From a virus (Duplodnaviria; Heunggongvirae; Uroviricota; Caudoviricetes), in IMG/VR virus record IMGVR_UViG_2778261085_000011, positions 1 to 13,532 of that record: a stretch of 13,532 bases of DNA, one strand, 5' to 3'. Made by a program: the position numbers and the translations under genes. Shown here piece after piece: positions 6,807 through 9,684 of the stretch. A model generated the notes under the pieces. It was not told where the DNA came from. It worked only from the letters and a program-made list of their open reading frames with translations, and did no database searches. The stretch's first letter is position 1. Every line of letters begins with the position of its first letter.

Positions 6807-8213
6807 TTACAGTGTGCGCACGTCATCACCGTCAATAGCAATAACGCCATCACCTTCCAGCTTGTACAGCCAGCGTCGGAAGTGTTTCATCTCATACCCC
6901 AGCTTTTTCATATCGTCGCGGAGAAGGGCGATAGTGCACGGCTCACCGTGCGCCGTTCGTGTTCTTATGCACTGCCATAGTGCGGCGTGATTCTCCGTCT
7001 TGTTCCCGGCCTCCTCGATGCGTTCCAGTTCTGCAGGGGCGCGGGGAACGTCAATCACCACCATGGACACAATCTCTTCGCCATCGGTATCGGTGAACAC
7101 CTCCACGCTTTTAAGGTCGTATGCACTCTCTTTTGGCTCCTCTGCGTCCTTCATCTTCGTACATGCCGCCACCAGTGCTGTAACGTCTGAATTTTCCCGG
7201 CCGATTCGGTACTCTGCATCAAGCGCGGCACGGAATGCGCTGGAACCACGCGCCCCCTTTGTTTCATCCTTGCCGGAATGGTGAACCACCAGCACCGTGG
7301 CCCCTGTAGCCTGCTTTATCGCGTCACACCCCTGGATAAATGCGCCCATATCACGGGAATCATTTTCATCATTCCCACCAAAGCAACGGGCCAGCGTGTC
7401 GATCACAATCAGCCGCACATTTTCGCCCGTTCTGCTCTTAACAAGTCCGGCAGTCCTGATAACCTGCTCCACATAGTCAGGCGATGCGGGAAAGACAGGC
7501 GCGTTAACGATGCACAAATCTGTAACCTCTTTTCCGTATGTTATCTCCCACGCCTTAACGCGGCGTTTTACGCCCATACTGCCTTCTCCAGCGATATAGA
7601 TAACCGCGCCCTTACTTACCCTGCGGCCTCCCCATGCCATACCTGTGGCAACATGGCACGACCAGGAAATAGCCAGGAACGATTTATAAGAACCGCTGGC
7701 CCCGTAGGTGCTGCATAATGACTCAGCCGGAATAAGCCCCTTAATTACGTAGCTTTGCTGCGCGTCGAATCCCTCAGAACCCCATGAGATGGGAAGTGTG
7801 ATTTTTCGCTTTCCACCATTCATGACCAGACTTTCCCCGCGTTCCCAGGTTTCTTTAAGCCGCGGTAGTTGCTCACTCCAGTCCTCCAGCAGTTCGAAAT
7901 TCTCTGAAAGTAACCGTGCTTCCTGGACACCTGCGATCGCCAGTTTGGTGGCAATGGTCAGCATCTGCATATCGTCCAGGTTTCCGGCGCGTATGACCTT
8001 TGCTCTGTATCGTCCTTCATCAACAATCTGTAAATTGTCCAGTTCGCTTAACTGATAACGGCCCAGGTAAACCGGAGGGATGGGATCGCCTGCTTTTTTG
8101 GCCTGTGCAATCATGTAATGTTCTGCAAAGGAGTGAGCATTATCACCCGCAAAAATAACCGCCTCAGTGTGTTTATCTTTCGGTAACAGTTTTACGTTCG
8201 GTGCCAGTTTCAT
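6807..8213 (-). CDS. Replication initiator / RecA-fold helicase-type ATPase (RepA/AAA_25-like; primase-helicase family)
   Basis: 468 aa with Walker A-like GASGSYKS, Walker B-like RLIVIDTLARCFGG and LVVHHSGKD; the C-terminal region looks like a wHTH. ATGA overlap with the upstream small gene; iterons follow the stop. Confidence 0.75.
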   Translation of the reverse strand: MKLAPNVKLLPKDKHTEAVIFAGDNAHSFAEHYMIAQAKKAGDPIPPVYLGRYQLSELDNLQIVDEGRYRAKVIRAGNLDDMQMLTIATKLAIAGVQEARLLSENFELLEDWSEQLPRLKETWERGESLVMNGGKRKITLPISWGSEGFDAQQSYVIKGLIPAESLCSTYGASGSYKSFLAISWSCHVATGMAWGGRRVSKGAVIYIAGEGSMGVKRRVKAWEITYGKEVTDLCIVNAPVFPASPDYVEQVIRTAGLVKSRTGENVRLIVIDTLARCFGGNDENDSRDMGAFIQGCDAIKQATGATVLVVHHSGKDETKGARGSSAFRAALDAEYRIGRENSDVTALVAACTKMKDAEEPKESAYDLKSVEVFTDTDGEEIVSMVVIDVPRAPAELERIEEAGNKTENHAALWQCIRTRTAHGEPCTIALLRDDMKKLGYEMKHFRRWLYKLEGDGVIAIDGDDVRTL

Positions 8214-8497
8214 TTCTTACCCCCTGCGACCAGCATTTCACGGATTTTGCGGATATAGCTTGCTGCACGTTTCTGATTTACGGCTTTACGATGGCCCACC
8301 AGCTTAAAATCACGCCGGAACTGATAAACAGGCATCACGCAGTCATATTCGTAGCCATCACGGCGGTAAGTGATGCGCCGTTCTGCCACGCCTTTAATCG
8401 TTACCATGCCGCCATATTTATCGCGGTAAATATCGCCGTTCATAAATTCAGGACGAGCGGGGCCGCTGGCATTAACGCCAGTATTTTTCTTTTTCAT
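8210..8497 (-). CDS. Hypothetical protein (95 aa)
   Basis: ATG at 8497 with GGAGA upstream; stop overlaps the Rep start. Confidence 0.55.
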   Translation of the reverse strand: MKKKNTGVNASGPARPEFMNGDIYRDKYGGMVTIKGVAERRITYRRDGYEYDCVMPVYQFRRDFKLVGHRKAVNQKRAASYIRKIREMLVAGGKK

Positions 8498-8502
8498 GTT
8501 TT

Positions 8503-8730
8503 TTATTCTCCGGTGTGCTGCGCTTTATTATTCTCGTGAATTGCCATCACTGTATTTAATTCATTAATAACAGGCGTTAATAGCGTACGCACGGCAGAAA
8601 ACATCATTGAATCAGATTCATCGCCACTTTCCTGCACATCAATTAACTTAAGTAGTAATGCGTCCATTTCCTTTGCGCGGATTAATTCGTTTTCAGAATG
8701 AACAAGAACATCAAAAGGTATTTTATGCAT
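8503..8730 (-). CDS. Hypothetical protein (75 aa)
   Basis: ATG at 8730 (MHKIPFDVL...) with AGGGAG upstream; the longer ORF start at 8766 has no SD. Confidence 0.45.
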   Translation of the reverse strand: MHKIPFDVLVHSENELIRAKEMDALLLKLIDVQESGDESDSMMFSAVRTLLTPVINELNTVMAIHENNKAQHTGE

Positions 8731-8953
8731 CACACAGTTTCTCCCTGATTCTTTTAGTGTCCTCATTGAGGATGTCTGTATCTTTTGTCAGTGAGTTTTT
8801 GGTAATTATTTTTATTGTTTTAAATTTTCTTTTGTCGTACTCCGACTGTGATTTCCTCTCCATGATCTCTACCATGCAATTTATATCCACAAGCGCATGT
8901 ATCAGTACTTTCAATGCTTCGCCTGCTGCGTCCGGCGTGTTTTTATTGCACAT
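8723..8953 (-). CDS. Hypothetical protein (76 aa)
   Basis: ATG at 8953 preceded by AGGGGGTGA; 8-nt overlap with the next gene. Confidence 0.5.
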   Translation of the reverse strand: MCNKNTPDAAGEALKVLIHALVDINCMVEIMERKSQSEYDKRKFKTIKIITKNSLTKDTDILNEDTKRIREKLCDA

Positions 8954-9155
8954 GTCTCACCCCCTGAATATTCGCGTTAATCATTCCGGCATGCTCTGCG
9001 AGTTCCTGTAATGATTCCCTTGTTGCGACAATGGCTTCATCTGGCAGGTGGTAATTACACACCACGCGACCTTTATCCACATTGACCAGTAGCTGCCCGG
9101 TGAATTTCTCACGAAACTGAACGCGGTTAAGGTCGGTAAGTGACAGGTTAATCAT
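8943..9155 (-). CDS. Hypothetical protein (70 aa)
   Basis: ATG at 9155 ([14 protein letters not shown]...) preceded by AGGGGGTG; overlaps the stop of the 178-aa gene. Confidence 0.5.
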
Positions 9156-9684
9156 GGCGCACCCCCTGACGAATACGGGCGGCGAATACAGCGACACAAC
9201 CGGACGGGCAATGGTTACGCGCTTCGCGTTCCGTCCATGCGGTGACGTGGATGATTTGGGATTCTGACGCGCCAAAGATGATAAAGCGCCAGATAAAGGC
9301 AGTTTGGGAATGTACAAGGGTAGGGACTGTAGCCATGTTGGCAGCCTCTTCGTTAGGGTTAATAAACCCACCGCAGGAAACGCCAATTTCGCTGGCGGTG
9401 GACTGTACGGGGTTGGCGTAACCGGTTAACGAAGAACCCGGCGCGGATTGCTCCGCCCCCATACAGCCCACCATTGATAAGGTGTGACTATCCGGCACAA
9501 AAAAACACGCAGGGCGCGTGTTGTGCGCTTCGTTAAATACCAGGACGCCAATCCCGGCACCAGATTTTGCTGGTGCGTATAAATCATAGCCCTGGCTGGC
9601 AGTGGCGAGCAACAGGTTTTTTACATCGGGTTTATTCAGGTTGTGCAAGTCCCGCCCTTGCGGGTGTGTGGTATGATTTAACAT
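9148..9684 (-). CDS. Hypothetical Cys-containing protein (178 aa), first gene of the minus-strand operon
   Basis: ATG at 9684 with GAGGT 4 nt upstream. Plausible amino-acid composition, unlike the upstream part of the long open frame. Cys pairs in PACFF, VGCMG, VSCGGF and NHCPSGC. Confidence 0.5.

Follow-up and report, generated by a model that had tools for sequence, protein, structure and literature searches.

In the satellite phage P4, the CI and seqA RNAs are located inside the eta gene, and the Rfam models C4 and isrK also match Gram-negative phage-inducible chromosomal islands (PICIs) (PMC10111431). Eta is translated only from an upstream late promoter, in coupling with an alpA homologue, and its translation prevents termination (PMC10111431). 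IsrK has been described as a structural homologue of the P4 seqA RNA, and experiments in Gifsy-1 demonstrated that orf45 is translationally coupled to anrP (PMC4825925). Gram-negative PICIs have AlpA as their helper-induced master regulator (PMC11773190). Here, a stretch of 13,532 nucleotides (nt) of viral DNA (Caudoviricetes; IMG/VR record IMGVR_UViG_2778261085_000011, positions 1 to 13,532; hereafter the window) was analysed, with particular attention to five small open reading frames (ORFs) that lie upstream of a replicase gene on the minus strand. The region that they occupy, 9684-8210, is very probably where the early (replication) operon of a PICI-type satellite begins, placed under a P4-type RNA immunity module.

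The five ORFs are referred to as ORF178 (9684-9148), ORF70 (9155-8943, 70 amino acids, aa), ORF76 (8953-8723, 76 aa), ORF75 (8730-8503, 75 aa) and ORF95 (8497-8210, 95 aa). The coupled chain that they form ends with rep (8213-6807), which encodes a RepA-type AAA_25 helicase (Pfam AAA_25, E-value 1.2e-43). The arrangement is that of P4: alpA or vis is followed by a frame opening at its stop, an internal constitutive promoter (here a likely one), isrK/seqA, C4/CI, a target on the Shine-Dalgarno sequence (SD) of a Kil/Icd-like gene, small coupled genes and a replicase. Both Rfam models match P4 in the same order, 5′ of kil. Moreover, long and short ORFs are nested in one frame in both elements; in agreement with published work, the P4 ATGs correspond to an Eta of 197-199 aa and a Kil of 65 aa, and the P4 frame begins at the stop of vis, the alpA homologue. 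The two nevertheless differ in several respects. With approximately 800 codons the frame here is longer than that of P4 (197-199), and it runs across three antisense genes; neither the small proteins nor the replicase is homologous to the P4 proteins epsilon, orf151, orf106 and alpha; and isrK and C4 are separated by 21 nt here and by 107 nt in P4. A tblastn search of the window with P4 proteins recovered nothing beyond the eta/kil region, vis and a weak match to gop, with no sid, delta, psu, epsilon or alpha-type primase. By these five genes, which mark P4-like satellites in the strict sense, the element is not one of them. Of the hallmarks of a P4-type immunity module, which also include RNase P processing of the RNA and immunity-dependent premature termination, the sequence-level ones are all present, namely a C4/CI RNA, a leader RNA with a terminator, two target sites that co-vary with the C4 loop and a nested eta/kil frame. 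As the P4 arrangement and the published work agree, ORF178 is a known device and not an unknown protein.

The immI region of P1 and P7 (c4 RNA, icd, ant) offers a second parallel. It also combines a C4-family RNA having two single-stranded elements with paired targets a1/b1 and a2/b2, the downstream one lying over the site where ribosomes bind an Icd-like gene, with the following gene translationally coupled to it. However, the downstream genes here are not Ant homologues, and they belong to a satellite island and not to a plasmid prophage. In Gifsy-1, isrK and its terminator are likewise followed by a C4-like RNA (STnc1160) overlapping a small ORF, to which the gene that follows is coupled. 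There, however, a short form of IsrK acts in trans to activate translation, and what is produced is an antirepressor together with the AntQ antiterminator, whereas the output here is a replication operon. The overall gene content (int, alpA, a 'Bro zone', replicase, ssb, proQ and perC) is that of Gram-negative PICIs, including the capsid-forming ones (EcCICFT073-type, EcCIMP1), with the difference that no capsid or terminase module is reached before the end of the window, a truncated Nu1-like fragment being all that it contains of this kind. As in other Gram-negative PICIs, int and alpA are followed by a replicase module on the same strand, with no phage lysis or tail genes. The operon is therefore classed as a P4-type immunity-controlled early operon of a PICI, a form of control already known for P4 and for Gram-negative PICIs.

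The RNA immunity module within ORF178

Two RNA genes were found by Rfam inside ORF178, each scoring above its gathering score and each on the minus strand. The first is an isrK / P4 seqA-type leader RNA (9576-9500; RF01394, 80 bits, gathering score 50), consisting of two hairpins, a linker and an intrinsic terminator, with a terminator-like site at 9522-9504. The second is a C4 antisense RNA (9478-9391; RF01695, 76.4 bits, gathering score 45), the equivalent of the P4 CI immunity RNA. A -10-like hexamer, TATGAT (9588-9583), lies 6 nt 5′ of the start of isrK and is found at the same distance from isrK in aligned relatives. It is likely to be a constitutive promoter, equivalent to P_LE of P4 and to PisrK of Salmonella.

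All the elements of the P1-type pairing scheme can be located on the same strand. C4 carries b' (UCUUCGUUAA, 9435-9426) in its loop and a' (CGCCAA, 9418-9413) at its junction. Upstream, a1 (UUGGCG, 9551-9546) occupies the loop of isrK hairpin 2 and b1 (UUAACGAAG, 9536-9528) the isrK linker. Downstream, a seqC-like target region (9386-9345) contains a2 (UUGGCG, 9386-9381) and b2 (UAACGAAGA, 9355-9347), the latter overlapping the SD of the Icd/Kil-like gene (AAGAGG, 9350-9345). The C4 loop of the window has 9-nt matches at both 9536-9528 and 9355-9347.

Around 120 loci were gathered by scanning viral contigs with a C4 core pattern, and 81 distinct versions were aligned. A contig scan with the Icd-like protein yielded at least two loci, the C4 DNA pattern being far more productive. 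In the alignment, changes on both sides of a base pair were seen in 12 of the 17 pairs of the C4 outer stem and in all five pairs of C4 hairpin 1 (17/22 variable-stem pairs in all). Between 96 and 100% of cells in the C4 stems are paired; the observed values were reached in none of 500 shuffles, and sliding the partners abolished the signal. Helices 1 and 2 of isrK covary likewise.

Hairpin 2 of C4 has a hypervariable loop, whose changes are matched by changes at two sites of fixed position, defining at least 15 specificity types. Measured from the start of hairpin 2, the upstream target is found within the isrK linker at a distance of approximately 95 nt, and the downstream target always at approximately 87 nt, where the SD of the next ORF lies. 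Across 96 loci, exact loop-target matches are 8-9 nt long for cognate pairs against 5-6 nt for non-cognate pairs, and in 75 of these loci a 9-nt match links the loop to the downstream site of the same locus. Duplex energies calculated on full-length RNAs were uninformative, because the method disregards intramolecular structure. Taken together, these data identify ORF178 as a P4-type RNA immunity module (isrK/seqA and C4/CI) nested in an eta/kil-like frame.

The first translated gene 3′ of C4 is an Icd-like / P4 Kil-like gene of 62 aa (9336-9148, minus strand), which corresponds to the last 62 codons of ORF178 and starts at the ATG at 9336. Its product scores 59.7 bits against NCBIfam NF033153 (cut-off 25). 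This gene evolves as a protein, with 53% of substitutions at third codon positions and a ratio of non-synonymous to synonymous substitution rates (dN/dS) of 0.29-0.36, and hardly any variation affects its SD and ATG among the aligned relatives. The similarity of P4 Kil to ORF178 residues 70-171 is weak (31% over a 104-aa blastp alignment) and includes the upstream C4 region. By analogy with its namesakes, the product is probably a cell-division inhibitor or a killing peptide.

In current annotation ORF178 is an 'ash family protein' or 'transcriptional regulator', and the frame could instead encode a genuine 'Ash'/Bro-network regulatory protein, in which case its amino acids, the cysteines included, would matter. 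The ORF starts with an ATG preceded by GAGG at 9684, is open in 86 of the 96 distinct loci and is matched over its full length by phrog_29966 (E = 4.5e-89). Gene callers predict 'ASH' proteins of 178-442 aa in identical islands, and a 2026 paper gives ash as a helper derepressor. The Pfam family Phage_ASH (PF10554) also matches well, at 58.9 bits (gathering score 26). However, a closer inspection revealed that this match (aa 36-126, nt 9579-9307) falls on the two RNA genes and spans both of them, and the matched stretch lacks the signature of protein-coding evolution. Across the isrK-C4 stretch, substitutions fall evenly on the three codon positions (0.34/0.32/0.34), whereas those of the Icd-like gene, ORF75, ORF95 and rep are biased towards the third; indels whose lengths are not multiples of three occur in 41 of 43 homologous segments. 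The variation is accounted for by base-pair covariation and by the co-variation of loop and targets. Moreover, the Prokaryotic Genome Annotation Pipeline (PGAP) marks 'ash' as a partial pseudogene in two related loci (L001 and L002), and the P4 immunity factor has been demonstrated to be RNA; the 137-aa 'cI' coding sequence in the P4 record is presumably a historical annotation. An Ash protein is, in our judgement, improbable here.

The cysteines lead to the same point. It had been suggested in a preliminary description of the region, made from sequence alone, that the 178-aa protein has four Cys-containing motifs that may bind metal. Three of its five cysteines (Cys60, Cys74 and Cys104) arise when, respectively, the terminator of isrK, a stem of C4 and the RNA target spacer are read as codons. 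As these lie inside RNA elements, the four-motif metal site is unsupported and a metal-binding 178-aa protein was rejected; CPSGC is the sole Cys motif within the real Icd-like part. More widely, Pfam PF10554 and PHROGs 29966, 3960, 821, 995 and 6928 (named 'Ash', 'transcriptional regulator' or 'transcriptional repressor') match translated isrK and C4 RNA genes. Annotation of the Ash type is likely a systematic artefact across phage and satellite genomes, and the RNA module remains our reading of ORF178.

Coupled junctions and the small proteins

The preliminary description had also proposed five overlapping ORFs with SD motifs, and the coordinates and junctions on the minus strand bear this out, one junction being a short gap. 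In order from ORF178 to rep, there are overlaps of 8, 11 and 8 nt, a 5-nt gap, and a 4-nt ATGA overlap of the ORF95 stop with the rep start, such that the operon does lead straight into rep. Every start codon of the five ORFs is preceded by an SD-like motif. The same unusual ribosome-binding site (RBS) had been noticed at two of the ORFs, and it was indeed found before ORF70 and ORF76 as CAGGGGGTG, which combines an SD with an overlapping stop/start. Copy 1 (9168-9160, minus strand) lies between icd/kil and ORF70 and copy 2 (8966-8958, minus strand) between ORF70 and ORF76; AGGGGGT also occurs 5′ of rep, at 8225. The chance expectation for CAGGGGGTG is 0.16 per window, and three copies were reached in none of 200 shuffles. 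A translationally coupled operon entering the replicase gene of a satellite-type island, as originally described, is thus supported (int, alpA, rep, ssb, proQ and perC are all present).

Profile searches overturned the statement that none of the products belongs to a nameable family, three of the five ORFs falling in named ones. ORF178 matches Phage_ASH and, at its end, an Icd-like family, ORF95 matches DUF4222, and all five ORFs match PHROG families. Matches were obtained from PHROG, Pfam, NCBIfam and Rfam; among solved structures nothing was found, PDB sequence searches with ORF70 (as a single sequence and as a profile), ORF76, ORF75 and ORF95 returning no match below E = 0.1. The expectation that the ORFs are conserved and coding held for ORF70, ORF76, ORF75 and ORF95, which are conserved with dN/dS of 0.2-0.7, and failed for the isrK-C4 stretch of ORF178, which lacks codon periodicity.

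ORF70 matches phrog_340 and has 26 homologue clusters, all from Escherichia. The family occurs in 70-aa and approximately 121-aa forms, always directly after the kil/icd-like gene with an 8-nt overlap, and this context is conserved; its dN/dS is 0.34-0.70. An AlphaFold2 model of ORF70 was unusable (predicted local distance difference test score, pLDDT, of 52). ORF70 is not present in L002 (strain STEC383), where the icd-like gene abuts ORF76 and is joined straight to it by the same junction, CAGGGGGT-N5-ATG. Since this junction links icd directly to ORF76 in a relative without ORF70, comparison of the sequences indicates that ORF70 is a cassette inserted together with a duplicated junction. 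The duplication therefore explains the repeated AGGGGGTG RBS and the QGVRH C-terminal tails that are shared between the proteins. Within the ORF70 family the tail is conserved as IQGVRH(VQ) and is encoded by junction copy 1.

ORF76 matches phrog_5146 and phrog_2512, and has only its N-terminal 38 aa in common with proteins of 151-154 aa that fill the same slot in other islands. Compared with L002 it has a dN/dS of 0.25, from few changes, and the exact protein is indexed in 78 blocks of an assembly collection. ORF75 matches phrog_2196, and its relatives are 77-aa proteins occupying the same slot elsewhere, with identities of 85% in L002 and 38-46% in L001 and L125; 59% of its substitutions are at third codon positions and its dN/dS is 0.22. 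For close pairs, the dN/dS of the operon genes is 0.22-0.36. The exact ORF70 and ORF76 proteins are found in many assemblies, within islands adjoining yejM.

It could be argued that ORF70, ORF76 and ORF75 are chance ORFs without coding function, as they are short and without Pfam families, and ORF76 has too few substitutions relative to its closest homologue to be judged by itself. However, all three match PHROG families, their order and coupled junctions are kept in diverged islands, homologues at 36-50% identity hold the same slots, and dN/dS for close pairs of the three is 0.22-0.34. This reading is largely refuted and we consider it very improbable. Sequence comparison instead indicates that purifying selection acts on ORF70, ORF76 and ORF75, which are modular proteins conserved among satellites, and the region is a series of exchangeable slots linked by conserved coupling junctions.

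What these proteins do is a separate matter. The preliminary description pointed to helper-directed or anti-defence effectors (derepression, interference), and position favours this. The gene coupled to kil, icd or orf45 is a derepressor or antirepressor in P4 (epsilon) and Gifsy-1 (AnrP), and in P1 the slot after icd is taken by Ant; by this analogy, we infer that ORF70 and ORF76 sit in the slot of helper derepressors and antirepressors. The parallel makes the earlier guess a reasonable one. In addition, related islands fill these slots with non-homologous alternatives, as would be expected of helper-specific factors, and ORF70 is confined to satellites, a tblastn search having found no match among 50,697 GenBank phage records. 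Set against this, the evidence is one of position: no likeness to characterised derepressors or solved structures emerged, the ORF70 model could not be used, and none of the proteins matched a PADLOC defence model. An effector role for ORF70, ORF76 and ORF75 is therefore a tentative proposal, on balance doubtful.

ORF95 carries DUF4222 (PF13973, 86.9 bits, gathering score 27) and has a predicted Tudor/SH3-like fold; fold searches with a DUF4222 model returned only generic Tudor/SH3/KOW and DUF1653 barrels. In GenBank phages, tblastn gave three weak matches only, one of them in an unannotated frame beside a lambda O-type gene. In islands, the DUF4222 gene is always directly 5′ of the replicase gene and coupled to it. 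Because it always abuts and overlaps that gene whatever the replicase type (AAA_25 RepA, DUF927 or D5_N/DUF5906), the DUF4222 protein, and possibly ORF75 and ORF76 too, might be accessory factors of the replicase and not helper-directed effectors. In lambdoid prophages, however, the DUF4222 gene is found 5′ of the isrK-C4 module and not beside a replicase. Furthermore, the one studied DUF4222 protein, RgdR, for which an RGD motif has been described (PMC10877973), activates transcription of the locus of enterocyte effacement (LEE) virulence island. RgdR, a small prophage-encoded regulator from OI-51 of enterohaemorrhagic Escherichia coli (EHEC) O157, is likened to ORF95 through the shared domain and its description; ORF95 lacks the RGD tripeptide and, unlike RgdR, is coupled to a replicase gene. 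A replication accessory role thus seems rather unlikely.

L022, L034, L080, L096, L103 and other lambdoid prophage contigs have a DUF4222-like ORF immediately 5′ of the isrK-C4 module. The first 116-140 residues of Rep (MKLAPN...) are 43-51% identical to the replicase N-termini in L002, L003 and L004, the L002 replicase being annotated as a DUF927 primase. Such identity suggests that Rep and the replicases of related islands share an N-terminal module, perhaps for origin or partner recognition. Directly 3′ of the rep stop, at 6615-6806, are six copies of CTCCCCACTTT (chance expectation 0.21), which are probably iterons of the replication origin.

The long stop-free frame and the surrounding island

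ORF178 is the tail of a much longer frame. The alpA gene (11776-11570, minus strand; Pfam Phage_AlpA), a homologue of P4 vis with weak similarity to it, ends with a TAA at 11572-11570; the GTG with which the long frame opens follows 4 nt later. This 'eta-like' frame is stop-free for 819 codons on the minus strand (11607-9148), from the 3′ end of alpA to the stop of the Icd/Kil-like gene, with its first GTG at 11565 and first ATG at 11550. In the 9685-11565 segment it contains no stops, against 33-45 in the other two minus-strand frames, and in 2000 dinucleotide shuffles of the segment the best frame never had fewer than 11. Four island variants (100%, 96.5%, 95.6% and 93% identical) all hold 799-819 open codons. 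Their indels are of 45, 3 and 3 nt, and one variant has a frame-restoring set of +1/-23/+1 within 110 nt. When equal numbers of substitutions were placed at random, the frame stayed open in 3%, 1.5% and 0.1% of trials. In other islands, the frame is open back to alpA or antA in some and replaced by a chain of overlapping same-strand ORFs in others.

Three plus-strand antisense genes lie inside the frame, at 10100-10345, 10685-10987 and 11045-11242. One belongs to the curated YlcI/YnfO family (ribbon-helix-helix-like) and the other two are phrog_21027 paralogues; their third codon positions coincide with those of the long minus-strand frame. The frame likewise passes through the promoter, the terminator and both RNA genes of the immunity module. 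Outside the three antisense genes, codon position has almost no effect on where substitutions fall in the frame, whose conceptual product contains 5% Cys and 11% Ser and shows no amino-acid conservation. The frame may therefore be a 'translated spacer', an extended eta maintained only as an open frame and selected for translation and not for its protein product, which we regard as a serious possibility to be held with some reserve. Its translation would hold ribosomes on the transcript initiated at alpA, allowing escape from Rho and from RNA immunity.

Several other features were noted between alpA and isrK. Terminator-like hairpins are present on the plus strand at 11388-11413 and 11511-11538. 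The interval contains a tandem duplication with a unit of approximately 790-800 bp, visible as a 48-nt repeat (9714-9761 and 10500-10547, copies 96% identical) and a 114-nt repeat (9930-10043 and 10731-10844, copies 72% identical). Each 48-nt copy holds an inverted repeat, CCCGG-N17-CCGGG, just 5′ of the eta or icd-like start. A candidate second Icd-like remnant near 10440 fell under the NCBIfam threshold and was discarded.

On the evidence of sequence, the element as a whole is identified as an E. coli phage satellite of the PICI type. Identical islands adjoin yejM, and the related island L001 is at the same yejM/tRNA-Pro site. In the compared interval, alpA to kil, L136 and L139 do not differ from the island of the window. 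Elsewhere in the window there are two PerC paralogues (1660-2031 and 4565-4852), a duplicated module of approximately 98 aa (2519-3109 and 3763-4059), the truncated Nu1-like small-terminase fragment (2877-3179) and a SocA/Panacea-domain (antitoxin-like) gene (1-513), which runs past the window end. A perfect (CCAG)13.5 tetranucleotide microsatellite at 1495-1548 could be a slipped-strand phase-variation tract.

Proposed regulation and significance

With the RNA genes and their covariation, the loop-target co-variation, the nesting of the frame, the geometry of coupling and four conserved small proteins all shown, a regulatory logic may be proposed by analogy with P4, P1 and Gifsy-1. In the quiescent state, the internal constitutive promoter (-10 at 9588-9583) would yield the isrK/seqA leader RNA, ending at its own terminator, and read-through transcripts would be processed to a stable C4/CI RNA. 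The b' loop and a' of this RNA would find partners at two places, a1/b1 within the isrK leader and a2/b2 just downstream. Pairing at b2 would occlude the SD and block translation of the Icd/Kil-like gene, and because its transcript would then be untranslated, early termination would follow, leaving ORF70, ORF76, ORF75, the DUF4222 gene and rep silent. Upon induction, a helper phage would turn on alpA, giving transcripts from upstream. Ribosomes leaving alpA would re-initiate in the stop-free eta-like frame and translate through isrK, C4 and the targets, preventing both the terminator and the RNA-RNA pairing. They would then be passed gene by gene over the overlapping stop/start junctions into rep.

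A number of observations weigh against this interpretation. The hexamer TATGAT was not flagged by a simple promoter scan, which missed it because the -35 is weak, and the promoter assignment is based on the conserved -10 alone. ORF178 has its own ATG and GAGG, and gene callers, PHROG and Pfam treat it as a protein, so that a translated product may exist. The mode of control can be modelled in more than one way: C4 may act by a translation block (P1 model) or termination (P4 model), or isrK may activate translation in trans (Gifsy-1 model). No homology was found between the small ORFs and P4 epsilon, orf151 or orf106. Finally, the icd-like gene, ORF70 and DUF4222 are present without C4 or isrK in L125-L132 and L004, and the protein slots are thus independent of the RNA module. 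Two of these loci, L129 and L131, carry an int-alpA RNA (RF02996) in place of C4/isrK.

Under the P4-type immunity reading, RNA immunity of the P4 style operates in this family of islands in many specificity types, from which it can be predicted which islands repress one another. A recurrent misannotation is also put right, since the 'Ash family protein' or 'transcriptional repressor' of PICIs, P4-like satellites and lambdoid prophages corresponds to translated isrK and C4 RNA genes, and ash is still given as a protein in recent papers. Between the immunity module and the replicase, the ORF70, ORF76/154 and ORF75/77 families and DUF4222 fill slots that are fixed and exchangeable, and these are the best places to seek helper-specific functions. 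If the long frame is indeed a translated spacer, it would represent the eta principle of P4 stretched four-fold and a clear case of selection for translation itself. It would then also offer a tractable system for translation-dependent anti-termination across antisense genes.

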